Source: Escherichia coli (GTDB taxonomy: Bacteria; Pseudomonadota; Gammaproteobacteria; Enterobacterales; Enterobacteriaceae). Taken from it: a DNA stretch of 64,000 nt. Positions 6,983 through 33,409 of this stretch are shown here, one piece after another. A program made the position numbers and the translations under genes. Positions within the stretch are counted from its first letter, which is position 1, and every line of letters begins with the position of its first letter. The notes beneath the pieces are model-generated. The model had not been told where the DNA came from. It ran no database searches and worked only from the letters and a program-made list of their open reading frames with translations. The DNA lies in the NCBI RefSeq assembly GCF_013315695.1, contig NZ_CP054353.1. One strand, 5' to 3'.

Positions 6983-9478
6983 TCAGAAGGTTAATTCCGT
7001 TTCCAGCAGCGTCAGGATGCTTTGCGCATCTTGCGCGGCGAACAGCGACTGGCGGAAGTTTTTATTCACCAGTTTGCGCGCCAGCTGCGAGAAGACTTTC
7101 ACATGGCTCATCCCTTCGTTAGCACCTAACGTCAGCATGATCACCAGTTCGACTTCGCCCATTTCTGACTGCCAGTCAACCGGTTTCACCAGCCGGGCAA
7201 TGCTGATACTGGAATGACGGATCCACTGAGATTTGGTGTGCGGGATCGCTACGCCAAAACCAACGCCGGTGGTAACAATCTCTTCCCGCTGCCAGACATC
7301 TTCTTCCAGCTCAAACGGATGTTCAGTACGCCCGTTAACGCCGAGGTTACCGCACAGGAACTGGATCGCCTGCTCTTTATTGCTAAAGGCCTGATCAACG
7401 AAGATATTCTCCAGCGCCAGCAGCGGGCGAACGTCTTCTTCCGGCGTAAACGCGGTGAGTAACGCTTCAATCTCCTGCGCGCTGCGGCATTCACATGCCT
7501 GACGCGCCAGTTCCCGACACGCCTCGCTATCCAGTTGACGAAGCTGGCTTTTCACCGCCGGAATGCGCGGGCTACTCATACTCAGCTCGTCCAGGCCCAG
7601 CCCAAGCAGTAGCGGCAGATAACGACTTTCACCGCCCAGTTCACCGCAAATACCTACCCATTTACCCCGCTGATGCGCAGTGGTAACAATCTGCTGCAAC
7701 ATGCGCAGGAACGATGGCGTAATCGGGTTATACAGCGGCGATACGCGCGGGTTATTACGATCGACCGCATACAGATACTGGGTCATATCGTTGGAGCCGA
7801 TACTGAAGAAATCGACCTCATCGCAGAAGTGATCGATGATGTAGCACACCGACGGCACTTCCACCATGATACCCAGCGTAATCGTCTCTGCATGACGCAG
7901 GCCATCGCGCTTAAGCTCAACGATCGCTTTTTGGATCTCGCCCTTCACCCATAAGATCTGATCGAGGCTGTGAACCATCGGGATCATCAACTGGGCGTTG
8001 CCGAAACAGGCAGCACGCAAAATCGCCCGCAGTTGAGTGCGGAACAGGCCAGCAAATTCCGGGTAAATACGTACCGCGCGATAGCCGAGGAACGGGTTCT
8101 CTTCCTGGGGAATATTCAGATAAGGAATGCTTTTATCGCCGCCGATGTCCATCGTGCGGAAGATAATCGGCTTGTCGCCCGCCGCCAGTAGCACCTGCTG
8201 GTAGGCTTCAAATTGCTCCTGCTCGTCCGGCGCGCTGTCGCGATCCATATAGAGCATTTCGGTACGGAACAGCCCGACACCTTCCGCGCCGTTGGCAAAC
8301 GCGCCTGGCGCTTCCAGCGCGGTGCCGATATTCGCCGCAATATCAATACGCTTGTTATCACGGGAATAGGCCAGCTGCGCGGCGGCCTGCGCCTGTTGTT
8401 TTTGGCGTTTATCCGCCAGCGTCTGCGCAACCTGATAATAACCGCTCACCGCGTCATTCGGGTTAATCGCCAGCACGCCGCACTGGGCGTCAAGCACTGC
8501 AGGTTGCCCGGCATAACGGGCAATCGCATCCAGCGGCAGGCCGCTCAGTACCGGGATCGCCGAAGCGCGGGCCAGGATCAGGGTATGCGAGGTGCGCCCG
8601 GTTTTCTCCAGAATCATGCCCGCAAGATTTTTTAAATCGAGGCTCAAAAACTGGCTTGGGGTTAAATCTTCAGCCACCAGAATAGTCGGTTTTTCAAGCA
8701 CCAGATTATTGCGCGGTTTTAGTTCCGGCCAGGTGATATGCAGCAACTGTTCGCTGATATCGCGAATGTCGCTGACCCGCTCGCGCAGATAATCGCTGGC
8801 AGAAGCAGAAAGTTTGGCACAAACCTGCTCCATATTGCTGATGATCGCCGCCCCCAGCCCCTGATGCTGTTCTGCCATCAGGTGACGGATATTGCCTGCA
8901 AATTCATCATCCTGAATCAGCGACAAATGGGCGCTGAGGATAGTTTTGCTTTCGCCGTCACGCTCACGCAATTGCTGGTTCAGTTGCTCGGCAAGCGTTG
9001 CCAGACTGTGCTCCAGCAGGGTGGAATCTTGCGCACTGGCCGGTATTGCCCGATAACTGTCGAGGCTGTCGCTCTGTAACAGGGTCAGCGTACCCACGCC
9101 GACGCCGCTTGCCAGCACATTGCCGTACAGTAAATCAGGATTCAGACGGCTTAATGAACGCGGCAGCGGATGCGCCGTCAGTTCTGCCTGCGTTGGCTGG
9201 ACGCTGTCGCTGTCGATAAAGCGCGCCTGGATGTACTCTTCCAGCACGCGCCGCGCCTGCTCTTCATCGCTGCCGCTAATGTTCAGGCTGCAACTGTCAT
9301 TAAATAGGGTGCCGGTGCCAATCAGCGCCAGCGAGCTTTTCGCATCTGCCTTTGCGTTCTGGCGATGGTTGATGAAGGTGATTTCGCTTTGCCACTGGCT
9401 GCACTGTTCTTTAAGTTCCCACGCCGGACGAGCATGCAGACCGTTAGGCAGAGGACAGAGAAATTGAATCGTTAGCAT
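6983..9478 (-). CDS. fryA: PTS multiphosphoryl transfer protein (EIIA-HPr-EI fusion), 831 aa
   Basis: N-terminal HPr-like domain (GLHARPA), internal EI core and C-terminal EIIA-like domain; last gene of a minus-strand operon. Confidence 0.9.
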   Translation of the reverse strand: MLTIQFLCPLPNGLHARPAWELKEQCSQWQSEITFINHRQNAKADAKSSLALIGTGTLFNDSCSLNISGSDEEQARRVLEEYIQARFIDSDSVQPTQAELTAHPLPRSLSRLNPDLLYGNVLASGVGVGTLTLLQSDSLDSYRAIPASAQDSTLLEHSLATLAEQLNQQLRERDGESKTILSAHLSLIQDDEFAGNIRHLMAEQHQGLGAAIISNMEQVCAKLSASASDYLRERVSDIRDISEQLLHITWPELKPRNNLVLEKPTILVAEDLTPSQFLSLDLKNLAGMILEKTGRTSHTLILARASAIPVLSGLPLDAIARYAGQPAVLDAQCGVLAINPNDAVSGYYQVAQTLADKRQKQQAQAAAQLAYSRDNKRIDIAANIGTALEAPGAFANGAEGVGLFRTEMLYMDRDSAPDEQEQFEAYQQVLLAAGDKPIIFRTMDIGGDKSIPYLNIPQEENPFLGYRAVRIYPEFAGLFRTQLRAILRAACFGNAQLMIPMVHSLDQILWVKGEIQKAIVELKRDGLRHAETITLGIMVEVPSVCYIIDHFCDEVDFFSIGSNDMTQYLYAVDRNNPRVSPLYNPITPSFLRMLQQIVTTAHQRGKWVGICGELGGESRYLPLLLGLGLDELSMSSPRIPAVKSQLRQLDSEACRELARQACECRSAQEIEALLTAFTPEEDVRPLLALENIFVDQAFSNKEQAIQFLCGNLGVNGRTEHPFELEEDVWQREEIVTTGVGFGVAIPHTKSQWIRHSSISIARLVKPVDWQSEMGEVELVIMLTLGANEGMSHVKVFSQLARKLVNKNFRQSLFAAQDAQSILTLLETELTF

Positions 9479-9568: not shown

Positions 9569-10540
9569 TTACTGCATCTGCAAAATGTCGCGGCAATCGG
9601 CAATCGATGCCGCGCAATGTCCGTGGCGGGTGGCAGGCCCCATCACCACTGTGGGTACGCCAGTGCCGGTTAAATGCATCGCTCCACCGTCCGTGCCGCC
9701 GTTGCTGAACATATCTGCCTGTAACGGCACGCCAATTTCTGCCGCCACGGTTTCAATCCACGCGGTAAGTTTTGGCGGCGCAATCAGCGATTTATCGCTT
9801 AACACCAGCATCGGGCCGTTACCAATCTGACGATGGTTAGCCGCGCCATAATCAAAGTTTTTCGCCCAGCAGGCGGTATCAAGCACAATGGCGACGTCCG
9901 GCGACACCGCGCGGGTGGCAGTTTGCCCGCCGCGTAATCCCACCTCTTCGCTGGAACTTGCCACCAGCCACACTTCCGCAGGCAGTTCGGCGTCGTGCAG
10001 CTCACGTAGTAACGTCACCAGCAGATAGCAACCGAGGCGATCATCAAAGGCTTTCCCCATCACCCGCTGGTGCGGGAGAACCTGAAAAGTTGTATCAAAG
10101 GTGACGCGATCGCCTGGACGAATTCCCACCTGCATCACTTCGTCATACGAGCGCGCACCAATGTCCACGCGCATGGTGCTGACGTCATTTCCCTGCCGGT
10201 CGCCGTCAAGCAGGCCAGGTATTTTGCACTCTTCACGGGTGGTGATGCGCACCGGCTGAAGCTGTCGGGCAGCCATGCGTACATTGCCAACCGGCAACAC
10301 ATCGATCGCCCCTTCGCGGGAGATGCTGCGCACCATAAATCCCACTTCATCCATATGCGCACAGATCATCACCTTCGGACCTGTCGATTCATTGAGGCGG
10401 ATCAGCACCGATCCCAGGCCGTCAAATCGCACTTCTTTTTGCAGGCGATCCGCTTCTTCCAGCAGGATCTGCCGTACTTCCTGTTCCGAGGAGGCGATCG
10501 CATCTGCCTCGCTCAACGCTTTTAATAGCGATAAATCCAT
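9569..10540 (-). CDS. ypdE: M42-family aminopeptidase
   Basis: 323-aa ORF; its ATG overlaps the ypdF stop (TAATG), indicating translational coupling. Confidence 0.85.
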
Positions 10541-11625
10541 TATGCCTCTCCCGTGAGCAACACTGTTTTCGGCATGGCGTAGAGCACTTCTGCGCCTTGC
10601 GGGGTGACCAGCACAACATCTTCGATGCGCACGCCCCCTTGCCCTGGCAAATAAATCCCCGGCTCCACGGTCAGTAACATGCCTGGCTGTAGCGTCGTGG
10701 TGTCCCGCGGTGAAAAACGCGGATCTTCATGGACTTCAATGCCGATAGCATGACCGGTGTTATGACCGAAATAGTCGCCAAATCCAGCCTCGGTAATCAC
10801 CCGGCGCGCGGCGTCGTCAACCTGCTGGCAGCGCACGCCGGGGCGAATCGCGGAGATTGCCGCGAGCTGTGCCTGCAAAACAATCTGATAGACGTCAAAC
10901 AGCGGGTGAGATTCGGCGCTCACCCCTTCGCCATTCACCAGCAAGGTGCGCGTCATATCAGAGCAGTAGCCCTGATACAGCGCACCAAAATCAAGAGTGA
11001 CAAACTCGCCCGCTGCAACAATCTTGTCGCTGGCTTTACCGTGCGGCAGCACCCCACGCCAGCCACTGGCGACAATGGTATCGAAAGAGGCTTTTTCTGC
11101 GCCCTGCTGGCGCATAAACCACTCCAGTTCAGCGGCTATCTCGCGCTCGCTCATTCCCGCCTGAATAAAGCGGCGAATATGCTCTGCACCGCGATCGGCA
11201 ATCCCACAGGCGAGGCGGATTTTCTCCACCTCCTCTGGCGTTTTGATTTGCCGCAGCACATCCGGCGTGGCGCTTACCAGTTTCGCATTGAGTTCAGACT
11301 GCCAGCGGTGCGCGGTTTCCCAACTCACCTGCTGGCCTTCAAAACCGAGCGTTTGCAACTGCTCATCGGCAATGATTTGCCTGGCGATGGTTGCAAGCGT
11401 GTGCGTCGCGTCAAGCAAATGCAGCTGGTAACCTTGCGTGCGGGCTTCTACATCCGCGTAATAGCGCGAGTCCACCAGAATGTGCGCACTTTCACGGCTA
11501 ATCAGCACATAGCCTGATCCGGTGGAGATCCCCAGATGCGGCTGTTTGTTCTGCCGTGAGGAGAGAAGCACCGCATCCAGTTGTTGCGCCTTAAGCCAGT
11601 CACGCAGCGAAGCGAGTAATGTCAT
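10540..11625 (-). CDS. ypdF: M24-family Xaa-Pro aminopeptidase, 361 aa
   Basis: Creatinase/prolidase N-terminus plus M24 metal-binding core ([13 protein letters not shown]). Confidence 0.85.
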
Positions 11626-24326: not shown

Positions 24327-25535
24327 TCAGGCTGTCACCTGAATCATTTCGGTGGGTTCCTGCTTCAACGAGCGGCCTGACTGCACCATCTCTCCACAGG
24401 CAAGAACGGCGTGCCCCGCCGCTAAAATGTTACGAGCGCCATTTACATCAGCGTTCGCTGTATATCCACATGCCTGGCATCTGAATTTACTTTGTGACAG
24501 GCGATTTTCTTTCGCTGTATGACCACAGCACGCGCAACGCTGGCTTGTGTACGCTGGCGGAACAGCAAGCACCTGACCGCCACGCCAGAGCTGCTTGTAC
24601 TCAAGCTGGCGGCGCATTTCATACCAGCCCTGATCCAGTATCGAACGGTTTAAACCTGATTTTGCCCGGACATTGCGCCCCGGCTGGCTGACCGTACCCG
24701 CTGCTGACTTTGACATGTTGCTGACCTTCAAATCCTCAATGACTATCATTGCGTGGTTTTTGCTGACGGTCGTTGTGACTTTGTGAAGGTAGTCCCTGCG
24801 GATATTTGCGATACGGGAATGCAGTCGCTGTATTTTGCGTTTCTGCTTCTGCCAGTTATTGCTGAATTCGACCTTGCGGCTTAACTGTCGCTGAAGTCTC
24901 GCCAGCGTCTTCTGGTTTTTCTGAAAACTGTTTACAGGCTCAAAGACTGTGCCATCTGACAGCGTGGCGAGTTTAGCCACGCCAGCATCCAGCCCGACCA
25001 TTGATGCTGAAGGGTGAACCGGAGTGGATACTTCACTTTCTGTCTGAATACTGATGTACCACTTACCGCAGGACTGGCTGACAGTGACATTTTTCACAAC
25101 ACCCGTGACCTGACGGCTGTTCCGGTAGCGCATCCAGCCAAGTTTCGGCAGAAAAATACGGCTGTTTTCCTGATCGAGCTTAACGCCCTGCGGGTAGCGG
25201 AATGCATCATTCTGTCCCCGCTTTTTGAATCGGGGAAAAGCAGCCCGCTTCTGGAAGAAGTTTTTGTAAGCCCGCTCAAGGTCTTTCAGTGACTGTTGCA
25301 ATGGCTGTGAGGGCGAATCTTTAAGCCATTGCATTTCAGTGGCGTTTTTCCACTCAACCAGCCAGGAAGCCATTTTCCCGTAAGGGATGTATTTATTACC
25401 GGCCTCATGATTCTCATTCTGAAGCGCCAGAGCACGATTGAAAACGAAACGACATGCGCCTGCGAAGCGCCTCATTTCACACTCCTGTTGACCACCTGGT
25501 CTTAACTGGAATTTAAATGCCTGTAATCGTTTCAC
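24327..25535 (-). CDS. tnpB: TnpB (OrfB) RNA-guided endonuclease of IS200/IS605 family, 402 aa
   Basis: Conserved N-terminus ([10 protein letters not shown]...[13 protein letters not shown]), RuvC-I VGLDAGV, Ruv[12 protein letters not shown], zinc finger CACCGH...CQACGY, Ruv[17 protein letters not shown] start at 25535 has no SD, internal ATG at 25475 has strong AGGAG and would give 382 aa. Confidence 0.85.
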
Positions 25536-27759: not shown

Positions 27760-27835
27760 GGGTGATTAGCTCAGCTGGGAGAGCACCTCCCTTACAAGGA
27801 GGGGGTCGGCGGTTCGATCCCGTCATCACCCACCA
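27760..27835 (+). tRNA. valU: tRNA-Val (anticodon UAC)
   Basis: 76 nt GGGUGAUUAGCUCAGCUGGGAGAGCACCUCCCUUACAAGGAGGGGGUCGGCGGUUCGAUCCCGUCAUCACCCACCA; anticodon loop CUUACAA; encoded CCA. Confidence 0.92.
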
Positions 27836-27879
27836 ACTACTTTATGTAGTCTCCGCCGTGTAGCAAGAAATTGAGAAGT

Positions 27880-27955
27880 GGGTGATTAGCTCAGCTGGGA
27901 GAGCACCTCCCTTACAAGGAGGGGGTCGGCGGTTCGATCCCGTCATCACCCACCA
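27880..27955 (+). tRNA. valY: tRNA-Val (anticodon UAC), identical second copy
   Basis: Exact duplicate of the previous tRNA after a 44-bp spacer; which K-12 paralog name applies is uncertain. Confidence 0.9.
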
Positions 27956-27959
27956 CTTC

Positions 27960-28035
27960 GGGTCGTTAGCTCAGTTGGTAGAGCAGTTGACTTTTAATCA
28001 ATTGGTCGCAGGTTCGAATCCTGCACGACCCACCA
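27960..28035 (+). tRNA. lysV: tRNA-Lys (anticodon UUU)
   Basis: 76 nt GGGUCGUUAGCUCAGUUGGUAGAGCAGUUGACUUUUAAUCAAUUGGUCGCAGGUUCGAAUCCUGCACGACCCACCA, 4 bp after the preceding tRNA-Val. Confidence 0.92.
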
Positions 28036-28145: not shown

Positions 28146-29030
28146 CTACTGCGCCAACGCCGCCAGCAGTTTAACCAGCGCGGGCGTCACCTGCTGCGTT
28201 TCATAAACAATATATAAGTCTGCCGGGATGCGTTCTTTGAGCGGACGGAATATGACACCTGGCCAGTTCATCTGCGCGTAACTGTCCGCTATCAATGTGA
28301 TACCAATACCCATACTGACCATGGCGAGTACCGTTTGCGGTTCATTAACTTCGCAAATAACAACCGGTGAAAATCCCACCTGCTGGCAAACTCGCTGCAA
28401 AAAATCCCAGTCAGTGTACACGGGCGGCATTGTAACGAAATACTCGTCACGTAGCGCTTCCAGCGGGACGGTGGAAAATGATGAGAGATGATGCTCTTCA
28501 GGCATCGCCACCACAAACGCCGATTCATGCAACCGTAAGCTGGTAAAACCAGTCGGTGGTTCTGTCGCCATTCGCCAGATCCCGGCATCAAGTTCGCGGC
28601 GTTCCAGCAAGGCCATTTGCATCGCGGGCATCTTTTCGCGAAACAGAACTTCAACGTTAGGATTTTCTCTAAGGAATCGCCGCATAACCGGGCGCATCCG
28701 TCCCCACATTGCCGTTCCCACAACCCCGAGTTCAATCCGCCCTGCTTCTCCCCGACCTATTTGTTCAACCCGAGCCAATACATTATTTGCATTCACCAGC
28801 AATCGACGCGATTCTTCCATCAAGATTTTGCCCGCGTGTGTCAGTACGACGCTGCGCGAATGGCGAATAAAAAGCTGCGTGCCGAGTTGATTTTCCAGCT
28901 CTTTAATATGAATACTGAGCGGAGGCTGAGACATATTTAAACGCGCTGCTGCGCGACCAAAATGCAACTCTTCCGCTACGGCAAGAAAATAACGGAGCAA
29001 CTTAAGATCTGTTCTATATACGCGTTCCAT
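28146..29030 (-). CDS. xapR: LysR-type transcriptional activator of the xanthosine operon, 294 aa
   Basis: ORF 28146-29045; chose ATG at 29030 (MERVYRTDLKLL); N-terminal LysR HTH. Confidence 0.85.
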   Translation of the reverse strand: MERVYRTDLKLLRYFLAVAEELHFGRAAARLNMSQPPLSIHIKELENQLGTQLFIRHSRSVVLTHAGKILMEESRRLLVNANNVLARVEQIGRGEAGRIELGVVGTAMWGRMRPVMRRFLRENPNVEVLFREKMPAMQMALLERRELDAGIWRMATEPPTGFTSLRLHESAFVVAMPEEHHLSSFSTVPLEALRDEYFVTMPPVYTDWDFLQRVCQQVGFSPVVICEVNEPQTVLAMVSMGIGITLIADSYAQMNWPGVIFRPLKERIPADLYIVYETQQVTPALVKLLAALAQ

Positions 29031-29282
29031 AATTAAGTGCTCCATATAAAAAAATATATCGTATTAAATTATCATGGCATAAAGTATTTCACCACCAGAT
29101 ATCCGACATACATAAACACGATGGATAATATACCCGGCAATACATTTGGAACAGGAATAGGTAATCGCACGATTGTAAACAAAGCACCAATGCCAAAACC
29201 AACGCCAGAAGAAAATAAAATATCTTTCACTAATTAACCTTTATCATAAAAGCAGCCCCAAGGAACAGAGCTGCGAATCCTT

Positions 29283-30539
29283 TTAATGTGTAACTGAACG
29301 ATGCGTTATCTTTTCAGGGTCATGGTTATATTTAAACCCAAAGAAAAATATCACTGCGAGGAAAAGAGCATACCCTGCAAACATCAGCCAAATGGTATGC
29401 CAATCTTTTACGCCATCCACCGAGAAGTAATCCACTGCCATACCGCTCAGAATCGAGCCAACCCATGCGCCGACGCCATTTACCATCGTCATAAAAAGGC
29501 CCTGGGCGCTGGCACGAATGCTGGAATCAACTTCCTGTTCGACAAAGACCGAACCAGAAATATTGAAGAAATCGAATGCACAACCGTAAACAATCATCGA
29601 AAGCAGCAGCAAAATAAACCCGGTTGGTGATGGGTCGCCATAGGCAAAGAAGCCAAAGCGCAGCGTCCACGCCACCATACTCATCAGCATGACGGTTTTA
29701 ATACCGAAACGCTTCAAAAAGAACGGTATCGTCAGAATGAAACCGACTTCAGCCATCTGTGAAACTGACAGTAAAATGGACGGATATTTCACCACGAAGC
29801 TATCAGCAAACTCAGGATTACGGGCGAAATCATGCAGGAACGGGTTGCCAAAAACGTTGGTAATTTGCAGCACCGCGCCCAGCATCATGGCGAAGAGGAA
29901 AAAGATAGCCATGCGTGGATTTTTAAACAGCACGAAGGCATCCAGACCCAGCTTGCTGGCAAGCGATGTAGTCGCTTTTTTCTCCGCAACCGGAATCTTC
30001 GGCAAAGTCAGCGCATAAGCCGACAGCAGCAATGACGCACCGGACGCGATATACAGCTGCAGACTACTCAATTCCAGATGCAGCAGGCTTACTGCCCACA
30101 TGGCGACAATGAACCCCACCGTACCAAAAACGCGAATGGGCGGGAAAGCGGTCACCGGGTCAAGCCCTGCCTGGGCAAGACAGGAATAAGAGACGCTGTT
30201 CGATAACGCAATAGTCGGCATAAACGCCATCGCATTGACTAACATCACCCAAAACATCATATCCGGATCAGTTACGGATGCCGCATAAAAAAGTACGCCC
30301 GCACACACCAGGTGACACAGCATGTATGCACGTTCTGCACGCAGCCATTTGTCTGCGATGATCCCCATTATACCAGGCATAATAATCGCGGCGATCCCTT
30401 TGGAACTGTAAACCATGCCAACATTAGCGCCGGTGAAATGAAGGGTATTAATCATGTAAGAACCGAGGGTAACCAGCCAGCTCCCCCAGATAAAATATTG
30501 CAAAAAGGACATTACCTTTAAGCGCAAAGCGATGCTCAT
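29283..30539 (-). CDS. xapB: xanthosine/nucleoside:H+ symporter (MFS, NHS family), 418 aa
   Basis: 12-TM MFS permease between xapA and xapR. Confidence 0.9.
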   Translation of the reverse strand: MSIALRLKVMSFLQYFIWGSWLVTLGSYMINTLHFTGANVGMVYSSKGIAAIIMPGIMGIIADKWLRAERAYMLCHLVCAGVLFYAASVTDPDMMFWVMLVNAMAFMPTIALSNSVSYSCLAQAGLDPVTAFPPIRVFGTVGFIVAMWAVSLLHLELSSLQLYIASGASLLLSAYALTLPKIPVAEKKATTSLASKLGLDAFVLFKNPRMAIFFLFAMMLGAVLQITNVFGNPFLHDFARNPEFADSFVVKYPSILLSVSQMAEVGFILTIPFFLKRFGIKTVMLMSMVAWTLRFGFFAYGDPSPTGFILLLLSMIVYGCAFDFFNISGSVFVEQEVDSSIRASAQGLFMTMVNGVGAWVGSILSGMAVDYFSVDGVKDWHTIWLMFAGYALFLAVIFFFGFKYNHDPEKITHRSVTH

Positions 30540-30598
30540 AATCGTTTCCTTGTCGCATCATATGGCCTCACCCGCGAGGCCGTTTCTTATTGTTTTTC

Positions 30599-31432
30599 TC
30601 AGGCAATTTTGCGCAGAAAGCCACAAATAAGGTTGATGAAGTTCTGCTTAGAGAGCTCCGCAGCCGCCAGCGTTTGCGCATGTGACAATTTCACATCGCT
30701 TAAACCTTCCGCCATATTGGTAATCGCAGAGACCGCAACGACTTTAAGTTCGCAATGGCGAGCAGAAATAACCTCAGGCACCACAGACATACCAACAACA
30801 TCCCCACCAATAATTTGCATCATGCGAATTTCCGCCGCAGTCTCGAAATTCGGACCCGGATACGAGACGAACACGCCCTCCGTCAGAGGGAACCCCTCTT
30901 CTTTCGCCACTTTTTGTAACAGTGCGCGGTATTCCGCATCGTAGGCATTCGCCAGCGAGAAGAAGCGCTCACCAAAACGTTCATCATTAAGACCCACCAT
31001 CGGCGTTCCCGGCATGGTGTTGATATGATCTTTCAATGCGACCAGACTGCCGGCCCCCACTTCAGGACGCAGTGAGCCAGCCGCATTGGTGCTGAACAGC
31101 AACTCGCAGCCCAGCAACTTAAAGGTACGGATTGCATCCGTCATGATGGTCATCCCACGACCTTCGTAGAAATGTCCGCGACCTTTCATGCACACCACTG
31201 GCACCCCCTGGAGATAACCCAGCACCAGCTCACCCGCATGGCCATGTACGGTACTTACCGGGAACCCAGGCAGCTTTTCGTAGGAAATTGCGACCGCGTT
31301 CTCAATCTGATCGGCCAGCGCGCCCAGCCCGGAACCTAAAATAAAGGCCACTCGTGGCGTGAAATCAGGTTTATAAGTCTTGATAATATCTACGCAATAC
31401 AGTGGGTTATGAGAAAACTGAGCCTGATACAT
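30599..31432 (-). CDS. xapA: purine nucleoside phosphorylase II (xanthosine phosphorylase), 277 aa
   Basis: PNP family (trimeric type) sequence. Confidence 0.9.
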   Translation of the reverse strand: MYQAQFSHNPLYCVDIIKTYKPDFTPRVAFILGSGLGALADQIENAVAISYEKLPGFPVSTVHGHAGELVLGYLQGVPVVCMKGRGHFYEGRGMTIMTDAIRTFKLLGCELLFSTNAAGSLRPEVGAGSLVALKDHINTMPGTPMVGLNDERFGERFFSLANAYDAEYRALLQKVAKEEGFPLTEGVFVSYPGPNFETAAEIRMMQIIGGDVVGMSVVPEVISARHCELKVVAVSAITNMAEGLSDVKLSHAQTLAAAELSKQNFINLICGFLRKIA

Positions 31433-31680
31433 ATATATCCTTTTTTTGTAGGGTGGAATCTAACGCCTTTTTATAACGAGATTGCCCTAACTCATACCAA
31501 TACACTTTTTTCATGTATCCGATAGTTATTCGATATCGATATATTTATATTTTTTCACTATTAATAGACTGAAAAAACTGTATTGGTACTCTCCTTTCCA
31601 TTGCATTAACAATATGCCGCTTTTAATCAACCTTTTTATTAAGCAATCAACTAATAACGATCAGCATAGGGAATTATGCT

Positions 31681-32445
31681 ATGAAAAAACATCTTTTTAC
31701 TCTGACACTCTCTTCTGTATTGGCGATACCAGCAGTATCCCATGCAGAATTTAAAGGCGGTTTTGCTGATATAGGTATTCATTATCTTGACTGGACTAGC
31801 AGAACCACTGAGAAATCGTCGACCAAATCACACAAAGATGATTTTGGATATCTGGAACTGGAAGGCGGCGCTAACTTTAGTTGGGGAGAAATGTACGGGT
31901 TCTTCGACTGGGAAAACTTTTATAATAATCGTCATGATAAACCGGGTAGCGAGCAGCGTTACACATTTAAAAATACCAACCGTATTTACCTGGGTGACAC
32001 CGGATTTAATCTCTACTTGCATGCGTATGGCACCTACGGTTCTGCGAATCGTGTGAATTTCCATGACGATATGTTCCTTTACGGGATCGGCTACAATTTC
32101 ACCGGCAGCGGTTGGTGGTTCAAACCGTTCTTTGCAAAACGCTATACAGACCAAACCTATTATACCGGCGATAACGGTTATGTCGCCGGTTGGGTTGCAG
32201 GTTACAGCTTTATGCTGGGCAGTGAGAAATTCACCCTCACCAACTGGAACGAGTACGAGTTTGATCGTGATGCCACCTACGCGGCAGGTAATGGCGGCAA
32301 AGAAGGTCTGAACGGTGCCGTCGCACTTTGGTGGAATGCAACTTCACACATCACCACAGGGATTCAGTATCGTTATGCGGATGACAAACTGGGCGAAGAT
32401 TTTTACCAGGATGCAATAATCTACTCCATCAAATTTAATTTCTGA
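31681..32445 (+). CDS. yfeN: outer-membrane beta-barrel protein, Tsx-like nucleoside channel family (putative), 254 aa
   Basis: Signal peptide MKKHLFTLTLSSVLAIPAVSHA, aromatic-rich alternating beta-strand pattern, C-terminal Phe (IKFNF); divergent from xapA. Confidence 0.8.
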   Translation: MKKHLFTLTLSSVLAIPAVSHAEFKGGFADIGIHYLDWTSRTTEKSSTKSHKDDFGYLELEGGANFSWGEMYGFFDWENFYNNRHDKPGSEQRYTFKNTNRIYLGDTGFNLYLHAYGTYGSANRVNFHDDMFLYGIGYNFTGSGWWFKPFFAKRYTDQTYYTGDNGYVAGWVAGYSFMLGSEKFTLTNWNEYEFDRDATYAAGNGGKEGLNGAVALWWNATSHITTGIQYRYADDKLGEDFYQDAIIYSIKFNF

Positions 32446-32450
32446 TTGAT

Positions 32451-32473
32451 TACTGCCGGGGCTCCCGGCAGTA
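32451..32473. terminator. hairpin between convergent yfeN and yfeR
   Basis: TACTGCCGGG-GCT-CCCGGCAGTA perfect 10-bp stem; flanking T-runs are weak. Confidence 0.5.
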
Positions 32474-32482
32474 TGAATAGCT

Positions 32483-33409
32483 CTATATCTGATACAGCGG
32501 ATCCCCTTCCCGCCCAGCCATTAGCGCACGGCCCTGGCCTCGTACCACGTCCCATAACGCTTGTGCGGCGGTGAAAAGTGAACGGTTCTTCCTGCGCACC
32601 AGCATCAACTGGCGTTCCACCACCGGCGTAATGCGCTTTACCACCAGCGGGCTACCTTCAGGCAATGGTAGCGCCAGTGCGGGAAGAATACTGATGCCGA
32701 TGCCTGCGGCTACCATCGGGAACAGCGTCGCCGGATGTCCAATCTCCTGCACAATATTCGCCTGAATACCATTGCGCGCCAGAGCTGCGTCAATCAGCGG
32801 TCGGCTGCCTGACGCGTAATCCTGCAACACCAATTTCGCTCCCTGTAATGCCTGCCAGGGGACATAATCTTCCGCGGCCAAAGCGCTATCGCGATGGCAA
32901 AGCAAGAAGAAAGGCTCGGAAAGAATCGCTTCACATTGCAGATCGCTCACTGAGCCTGGATCGATGACGATGCCAAAATCGACATCTCCCTGGCGAATAC
33001 TTTCCATCACCCACTGCTGCGGACGATCGTGCAGGACAAACTGAATATCTGGATAGCGGCGATGGCTTTCAGCAATGCATTGCGGAATAAGATGCGCGGA
33101 AATGGTCTGGCTGGCAGCGACCCGAACTTTTCCGCTCAGTTGTTGCCCCATACGCCCGGTATCGCGCAACGTGCTGTTAAGTTCATCCAGCAGTCGCTCA
33201 AGACGCAAAGCCAACTGCTGCCCTGCATCTGTAAGCACCACTTCACGCGTGGTTCTGTCCAGCAGGCGAACACCAGTATGATTTTCCAGCTCCTTCACAC
33301 TGTGACTCACTGCCGACTGGCTCAGGCCGATACGCTCTCCTGCACGACTAAAACTTTTCTCCTGCGCTACTGTGACGAAAACCTTTAATTGCTTTAAAGA
33401 ATAATTCAT
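32483..33409 (-). CDS. yfeR: LysR-type transcriptional regulator, 308 aa
   Basis: N-terminal LysR HTH ([38 protein letters not shown]). Confidence 0.8.

Follow-up and report, generated by a model that had tools for sequence, protein, structure and literature searches.

Specific porins encoded beside their catabolic operons are a familiar theme. Among the systems closest to the one described here, the nucleoside channel gene tsx of Escherichia coli is controlled by CytR and CRP (PMC3454398), and CytR represses ompK of Vibrio cholerae together with udp, cdd and nupC (PMC4581735). The xapAB promoter of E. coli has been reported to carry one XapR site that partly overlaps the xapA -35 element and a second site located further upstream (PMC7205307). 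The xap genes are accessory in E. coli, being absent from phylogroups B2, D and E (PMC9602453), and have been horizontally transferred more than once (PMC2395238). The present analysis concerns yfeN, a gene divergent from this xanthosine operon in a 64,000-nucleotide stretch of E. coli DNA (contig NZ_CP054353.1; the whole stretch is hereafter called the window). That YfeN is a nucleoside channel is considered probable, and the fuller model, in which this channel is functionally coupled to xap and activated by XapR, is held to stand at about an even chance.

In the window, the genes occur in the order gltX, three tRNA genes, xapR, xapB and xapA (these three on the minus strand), a 248-bp spacer, yfeN (plus strand), yfeR (minus), yfeH (plus), ypeB and ligA. 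This order equals that of K-12, in which the names xapR, xapB, xapA and yfeN are also annotated. A sequence-only reading of the window had placed yfeN across a spacer of exactly 248 bp from xapA, with xapB and xapR beyond, and all of these coordinates were confirmed. The features concerned are the following:

28146 to 29030, minus strand: xapR, LysR-type activator, with the K-12 start (294 amino acids, aa; NF007439, E=8.7e-160; PRK09986); the mechanical open reading frame (ORF) extends to 29045
29283 to 30539, minus strand: xapB, xanthosine:H+ symporter of the NHS family (PF03825, E=4e-189; TIGR00889)
30599 to 31432, minus strand: xapA, xanthosine phosphorylase (TIGR01699 XAPA, 531 bits)
31433 to 31680, unstranded: divergent control region common to xapA and yfeN, 248 bp, with the same length in K-12
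31681 to 32445, plus strand: yfeN coding sequence (CDS), 254 aa plus stop, Tsx-family OmpK-like 12-stranded outer-membrane channel
31681 to 31746, plus strand: predicted YfeN signal peptide, residues 1-22, MKKHLFTLTLSSVLAIPAVSHA, with the cleavage site set by rule

Family and predicted fold of YfeN

YfeN matches the Pfam model PF03502 Channel_Tsx with E=3.8e-44 and 151.7 bits (cut-off 27.2), residues 34-254 aligning to profile positions 2-244, so that the Tsx-family assignment of the sequence-only reading proved correct. Against this Pfam model, E. coli Tsx reaches 292 bits, and the NCBIfam entry PRK11528 covers YfeN from residue 1 to 254. This assignment is already public: RefSeq uses the names "OmpK" and "Tsx family protein" and a 2020 paper calls YfeN a Tsx-family protein (PMC7797564). 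In K-12, the product is annotated as "putative outer membrane porin". The translation also bore out the earlier description of a signal-peptide protein ending in Phe, since it begins with MKKHLFTLTLSSVLAIPAVSHA followed by EF, where a typical signal peptide carries the cleavage motif S-H-A, and its last residues are IKFNF, the final Phe being kept in every orthologue checked. In the structure model (predicted local distance difference test, pLDDT, of 89.7), residues 2-20 are helical with low pLDDT and a 12-stranded antiparallel beta-barrel starts from residue 24, the nearest structure being the Tsx crystal structure.

Similarity to Tsx itself remains remote. Comparison of YfeN with the Tsx family alignment by hhalign gave 85% probability (E=6e-6) with the N-terminal half alone covered, and BLASTP against E. 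coli Tsx gave E=0.02 across 33 residues, which falls short of direct pairwise similarity. Tsx was not retrieved from the PDB sequences by phmmer with either YfeN or a 38-sequence YfeN-family profile, the sole match of the latter being a weak one to NanC (E=0.04). The two proteins are thus connected only through the profile-profile comparison and the Pfam model, and YfeN is a Tsx-family member of a distant OmpK-like branch and not a Tsx orthologue. Invariant aromatic and charged residues are present in the YfeN family.

Two classes of relatives are found outside xap loci. The closer ones lie between ampG and cyoA in Yersinia, Xenorhabdus, Proteus and Morganella; at 252-259 aa, their products share 55-64% identity and the same Pfam domain with YfeN. 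Their position is fixed, unlike that of the xap-linked yfeN, which moves within a cassette, and theirs appears to be the form passed on by vertical inheritance. The second class (43-44% identity) is embedded in nucleoside operons. In Vreelandella, a DeoR-type regulator is divergent from an ompK-like gene followed by nupC, deoC, deoA, deoB, deoD and cdd, while in Shewanella the arrangement is nupC, ompK-like, deoCABD. These distant relatives, together with the CytR-repressed ompK of V. cholerae, make a nucleoside-channel role likely for the whole OmpK-like branch. Aside from these, a 149-aa protein from a JGI metagenome (P0060) is 98% identical to part of YfeN and has both Nuc_H_symport and Channel_Tsx Pfam matches; it may represent a xapB-yfeN deletion fusion or an assembly chimera.

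The divergent control region

The sequence-only reading had suggested looking for XapR-binding repeats in positions 31433-31680. A 19-nt inverted repeat was indeed found there, the identity of which as a XapR operator is deduced from its position. Its two arms are 95% complementary (18 of the 19 positions match), with 56 nt between them and 75 bp from centre to centre. When three mismatches were allowed, the repeat arm had two matches in the 64-kb window for 0.03 expected, and these were the two arms themselves. The elements of the region are listed below:

31470 to 31475, minus strand: putative xapA -10 hexamer, TATAAA, in the form TATAA(A/C) located exactly 19 nt from the proximal arm
31495 to 31513, minus strand: proximal arm, TGAAAAAAGTGTATTGGTA towards xapA and TACCAATACACTTTTTTCA on the plus strand, a probable XapR site overlapping the xapA -35
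31520 to 31538, unstranded: central dyad CGATA-N9-TATCG, a LysR-type T-N11-A box ca. 60-65 bp upstream of the predicted xapA start and a probable upstream XapR site
31570 to 31588, plus strand: distal arm, TGAAAAAACTGTATTGGTA towards yfeN, the proposed XapR site of the yfeN promoter
31579 to 31586, plus strand: segment TGTATTGG within the distal arm
31608 to 31613, plus strand: proposed yfeN -10 hexamer, AACAAT, 19 nt after the distal arm
31668 to 31672, plus strand: Shine-Dalgarno-like AGGGA, 8 nt before the yfeN ATG, with GGGAA/GGAA conserved in alignments

The proximal arm is a probable XapR site because its position fits that of the site reported to overlap the -35 (PMC7205307).

When the spacer was aligned across sets of 11 and of 13 sequences, five conserved blocks emerged inside otherwise diverged sequence. 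The first, TTTATA(A/G)CG, reads TATAAA towards xapA, and the second is the invariant core of the proximal arm, CCAATAC. The third corresponds to the central ATCGAT-like boxes that include the T-N11-A dyad and occurs in all species, among them Klebsiella and Atlantibacter which have no yfeN. The core of the distal arm, GTATTGG, forms the fourth, with TATTGG invariant upstream of yfeN in the 13 aligned sequences, and a TAnnAT-like hexamer on the yfeN side forms the fifth. The two sides are built alike. Facing xapA, exactly 19 nt separate the 10-mer nGTATTGGnn from a TATAA(A/C) beyond it in 17 of 18 loci. Facing yfeN, a hexamer that agrees with TATAAT at four or more of its six positions occurs 19 nt past this 10-mer in 14 of 16 loci; it is AACAAT in E. 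coli and AATAAT in Budviciaceae and Entomohabitans, other loci having TAAAAT, TATTAT, TAACAT or TACCAT. Each arm is preceded by an A-tract. A plain scan for the 10-mer across loci returned many one-mismatch chance matches, so that only the position- and spacing-specific analysis is informative.

Two groups of genomes in which the genes are arranged differently indicate which gene the distal arm accompanies. In Budviciaceae, yfeN is set apart from the xapA promoter by deoB plus several hundred base pairs. There, the distal arm, the A-tract, an ATCGAT-like half-site and the hexamer are located ca. 120-130 bp upstream of the yfeN ATG, ca. 2 kb from the xapA promoter, and of the motifs the spacer between xapA and deoB has retained no more than the -10, the proximal arm and one perfect dyad, ATCGATAT-N7-ATATCGAT. 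Conversely, the region upstream of xapA in Klebsiella and Atlantibacter has kept the -10, the proximal arm and the central dyad, with the distal arm and the yfeN-side hexamer both absent. The distal arm thus goes with yfeN and not with xapA, and the simplest reading of these arrangements is that XapR may also activate yfeN from a weaker, mirror-image promoter.

Two general scans were also run. A generic promoter scan made no call in the spacer; since it also missed the known xapA promoter, it is uninformative for activator-dependent promoters. An Rfam scan of positions 31300-32600 found no RNA family at E<=1, and there is therefore no sign of a riboswitch or small RNA in the spacer.

Linkage of the four genes across species and within E. 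coli

For the linkage survey, one genome per species was scanned with YfeN, which yielded 18 loci onto which the window proteins were mapped. The xapR-xapB-xapA block divergent from yfeN was found in three different chromosomal settings. The first is the site between gltX-tRNA and yfeR, occupied in Escherichia, Pseudocitrobacter, three Citrobacter and Entomohabitans, to which exact-protein look-ups added a Salmonella, Kluyvera and an Enterobacter. In Phytobacter ursingii (the second setting), a peptidase M24 and an iron alcohol dehydrogenase lie downstream, and gltX and yfeR are not nearby. The third is that of Budviciaceae (Pragia and two Limnobaculum) with the order xapR-deoC-xapB-xapA / deoB-yfeN; the flanks were identified for Pragia, in which they are modE and a modF-like ABC gene. 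Since the three settings share the same core, the four genes move together, and additional genes of nucleoside catabolism can join them. The position of the porin gene next to transporter and catabolic genes is therefore conserved across three contexts, with Klebsiella and Atlantibacter as exceptions, and XapR is the sole regulator that accompanies the block in all of them. YfeR was considered as the main regulator of yfeN and rejected: yfeR is convergent with yfeN and divergent from yfeH, and yfeN occurs without yfeR in Phytobacter and Budviciaceae. In Buttiauxella massiliensis (10001-10751 of locus L017), xapRBA is gone from the gltX...yfeR site and yfeN is a frameshifted pseudogene, a single case in line with the view that yfeN loses its value once the xap genes are gone.

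Within E. coli, the 1.5-kb stretch around yfeN is 100% identical to that of strain MSB1_4I, and 5,416 of the 5,426 complete genomes match some part of it. Both xapA and yfeN are present in 4,096 of these genomes and have no match in the other 1,330 (about a quarter). In O157:H7 (locus L028, 2703-4156), xapR, xapB, xapA and yfeN are all missing, the tRNA-Lys gene being followed by a gene for a 113-aa FlxA-like protein, which overlaps the 3' end of yfeR, and then by yfeR. Ten more low-coverage rows from a sampled ranking show these same features with all four genes absent. As the four genes are adjacent, their joint absence within E. coli amounts to a single event and is weak evidence alone; conservation across families weighs more. 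The presence of both yfeN and the FlxA-like gene was observed in Kluyvera and an Enterobacter, which makes the E. coli forms look like alternative deletions.

Comparison of the window with the K-12 allele gave a ratio of nonsynonymous to synonymous substitution rates (dN/dS) of 0.028 for yfeN, indicating strong purifying selection, with a dS of 0.56 vs 0.07 for the flanking gltX and yfeR. The two yfeN alleles are unusually old. Within the locus, divergence is highest in the spacer and yfeN (83-94% identity to K-12), and the conserved motifs persist in them. The mosaic spans 29190-32588 (K-12 locus L001) and includes parts of xapB, the 5' part of xapA, the spacer and yfeN, all at 83-94%, between flanks at 97-100%. 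Two old haplotype classes were observed over xapA-yfeN in E. coli, with 1,506 records sharing 95% or more identity with the window and 2,575 sharing 90-95%; import from another species or balancing selection are candidates for their origin.

Several further rearrangements were observed at this locus. In E. coli SCPM-O-B-8794 (locus L004, 7506-9745), two more genes lie between xapA and yfeN, one encoding a 308-aa nucleoside 2-deoxyribosyltransferase-like protein and the other a second nucleoside:H+ symporter with 62% identity to XapB, and three arm-bearing promoter regions occur at 7354, 9799 and 9889. In E. coli strain 200088 (locus L029, 4159-6309), an insertion of the IS5-family element ISKpn26 is accompanied by truncated xapR and yfeN and by deletion of xapB and xapA, and another E. 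coli strain (hit H27) has ISKpn26 between xapA and yfeN. The tRNA array before xapR (27760-28035 of the window) is composed of Val-UAC, Val-UAC and Lys-UUU, whereas K-12 has four genes (valU, valX, valY and lysV); this difference in copy number adjoins the variable xap/yfeN block. Further upstream, between yfeD and gltX, the window carries a 402-aa TnpB-type ORF (24327-25535, minus strand; IS605 OrfB, Cas12f1-like TNB domain) in a region that has no homologous sequence in K-12, the two not aligning upstream of 26069. The xapR-xapB spacer measures 237 bp in the window (29046-29282). Between these two genes, a 52-codon ORF with no Pfam match is found in the Salmonella (L020, 5384-5542), Kluyvera (L033, 6792-6950) and Enterobacter (L034, 6791-6949) loci. 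One further feature lies downstream of yfeN:

32452 to 32472, unstranded: G+C-rich hairpin between the convergent yfeN and yfeR (-18.6 kcal/mol, z=-2.9)

This hairpin was missed by the terminator scan because it has no T-run, and is likely a terminator for both genes.

The proposed model, competing readings and known systems

In the model put forward here, YfeN would be a monomeric 12-stranded outer-membrane channel with the Tsx fold, belonging to the OmpK-like branch, and xapR, xapB, xapA and yfeN would form a four-gene cassette for the utilisation of purine nucleosides (xanthosine). Xanthosine would cross the outer membrane through YfeN, a step that would matter mainly at low concentration when general porins are limiting; XapB would then carry it over the inner membrane, and XapA would cleave it by phosphorolysis. 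Transcription of yfeN would start from a weak, activator-dependent promoter with its -10 at 31608-31613 and the distal arm, 31570-31588, as upstream element. As this arm mirrors the XapR site at the xapA -35, XapR with xanthosine would switch on both divergent units, their predicted transcription starts being near 31620 (yfeN) and near 31463 (xapA). The model draws on the family, the predicted fold, the synteny and the conservation and geometry of the motifs; it predicts binding of XapR to the distal arm, induction of yfeN by xanthosine, and xanthosine as substrate. A broader proposal is put forward somewhat more tentatively, at slightly below even chances: that the spacer is a bidirectional XapR-dependent region made of two mirrored activator-site/-10 modules, that xapR-xapB-xapA-yfeN is a horizontally mobile, self-contained xanthosine cassette of which the outer-membrane component has been overlooked, and that YfeN is a purine-nucleoside (xanthosine) channel distinct from Tsx.

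A number of points weigh against XapR-dependent coupling of yfeN to xap, and several of them would suit a reading in which YfeN, as a channel for nucleosides or small solutes, does not depend on XapR for its expression (this being constitutive, catabolite-controlled or driven by some other factor) and has no special role for xanthosine, its adjacency to xap reflecting co-inheritance in a variable island by the tRNA array. The block does follow directly on the tRNA-Val/Lys array and its presence varies in E. coli, as is typical of hitch-hiking islands. In Klebsiella (oxytoca group) and Atlantibacter, xapA-xapB-xapR occupies this same site without yfeN, which makes YfeN dispensable for the xanthosine pathway, and the ampG-cyoA relatives, although closer to YfeN than the deo-linked ones, have no nucleoside genes or xapR nearby. 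Moreover, the regulator HusR (YnfL) has a binding peak at xapA/yfeN and xapA is more than five-fold HusR-dependent in stationary phase in lysogeny broth, but yfeN is not among the HusR-responsive genes (PMC12844172); as HusR changed xapA and not yfeN, the two are not always co-expressed. The E. coli yfeN -10 is also weak, and Kluyvera and the Enterobacter have not retained the hexamer at the 19-nt spacing. Hitch-hiking does not, however, predict that the same four genes recur under three sets of flanks, with extra deo genes, nor that yfeN should keep a copy of the xapA activator-site module even 2 kb from xapA, and yfeN decays where xapRBA has been lost. Independent expression is on balance considered rather unlikely. 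The suggestion of the sequence-only reading that YfeN may be the entry route for xanthosine is partly supported: the block in three contexts, the joint absence of the four genes from some E. coli genomes, the deo/nupC relatives and the mirrored promoter module favour it, and the yfeN-less loci of Klebsiella and Atlantibacter and the effect of HusR on xapA alone tell against it.

The distal arm might otherwise be merely an upstream XapR site of xapA, acting with the proximal arm through cooperative binding or looping, with yfeN poorly expressed or silent in E. coli. Of the two XapR sites reported at the xapAB promoter, deletion of the upstream one cripples induction, nearly abolishing the response (PMC7205307); if that site is the distal arm, then the arm serves xapA at least partly, although the two roles are compatible. 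Such a reading would also suit the near-perfect inverted repeat with arms ca. seven helical turns apart, the weakness of the E. coli yfeN -10 (AACAAT), and the empty promoter scan of the spacer. It fits poorly with Klebsiella and Atlantibacter, which have kept every other element of the xapA promoter and not this arm, with its remote position from the xapA promoter in Budviciaceae, and with the conserved -10-like hexamer 19 nt past the arm on the yfeN side, while the strong purifying selection argues that yfeN is expressed; this reading is regarded as improbable. Least probable is that YfeN acts mainly as a surface receptor (for phage or colicin) or as a structural outer-membrane protein, transport being irrelevant and the allelic divergence being due to selection by phages. 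Members of the family do serve as phage receptors (Tsx for T6 and OmpK for KVP40), and within this locus E. coli strains differ most in yfeN and its promoter region. That divergence is, however, almost all synonymous, unlike the pattern left by an arms race; no phage of the BASEL collection has a growth phenotype on the yfeN knockout (PMC8594841), and the conserved linkage to nucleoside catabolic genes points to transport.

Returning to the model of a XapR-activated channel, the literature search gave no experiments on yfeN expression, XapR binding or transport and no link between yfeN and xanthosine. The proposal of YfeN as a xanthosine route was itself found nowhere in the literature searched; it draws its support from conserved synteny and promoter architecture. 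No xap or yfeN data were found in the Reg-Seq paper and no functional information in the other papers that mention yfeN (on cellobiose evolution, phage-receptor screens, carbamazepine and Y. pestis Crp), and the yfeN mutation S121P had no phenotype. Tsx and the general porins of E. coli should also pass a 284-Da nucleoside at millimolar levels, and at usual laboratory concentrations they would probably mask a yfeN phenotype.

Two observations concern published material. The HusR motifs obtained by genomic systematic evolution of ligands by exponential enrichment (gSELEX) for the xapA/yfeN peak map to 31474-31489, in the interval from the xapA -10 to the proximal arm (where several bases of the K-12 sequence, TAGCGAGGTTGTCCCG, are changed in the window), and to 31883-31898, inside the yfeN CDS (GGGGAGAAATGTACGG). 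The homology used for a published xapABR deletion (PMC7205307 S1 Text, primer "xapABR <> P1", ca. 31681-31737) corresponds to the first yfeN codons; because the whole spacer up to the yfeN ATG was removed, with any yfeN promoter in it, phenotypes of that deletion may include lost yfeN expression, and the strain does not test yfeN cleanly.

Control of yfeN by XapR is a modest, testable prediction and the advance is incremental. If the link of yfeN to xap holds true, a long-uncharacterised outer-membrane protein of E. coli would gain a substrate and a regulator, and E. coli would have two separately regulated nucleoside channels, Tsx (CytR/CRP) and YfeN (XapR). The xap system, which serves as a simple model for bistable switching driven by a transporter, would then need a fourth component and a second XapR promoter. 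With the cassette in ca. 75% of complete E. coli genomes, it could affect strain differences in the scavenging of purine nucleosides, in the gut or the urinary tract.

Compared with known systems, YfeN is set apart from E. coli Tsx (PDB 1TLY/1TLW/1TLZ), to which it is 13% identical and than which it is 40 residues shorter. The tsx gene lies at a separate locus beside yajD and yajI, away from catabolic genes, whereas yfeN adjoins xapA with XapR-type motifs; the two coexist in E. coli and in Pragia. A second comparison is with OmpK of Vibrio and the OmpK-like genes of deo/nupC operons, NCBI naming YfeN "outer membrane protein OmpK". Those deo/nupC genes are co-directional within pyrimidine or general nucleoside operons under DeoR- or CytR-type repressors; yfeN, by contrast, stands alone and divergent next to an operon for purine nucleosides (xanthosine) that has a LysR-type activator. 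The pairs LamB/mal, ScrY/scr, BglH/bgl, NanC/nan and ChiP/chb, as well as KdgM, belong to other protein families, and their co-regulation has been shown experimentally, whereas that of yfeN with xap is predicted from the arrangement described here.

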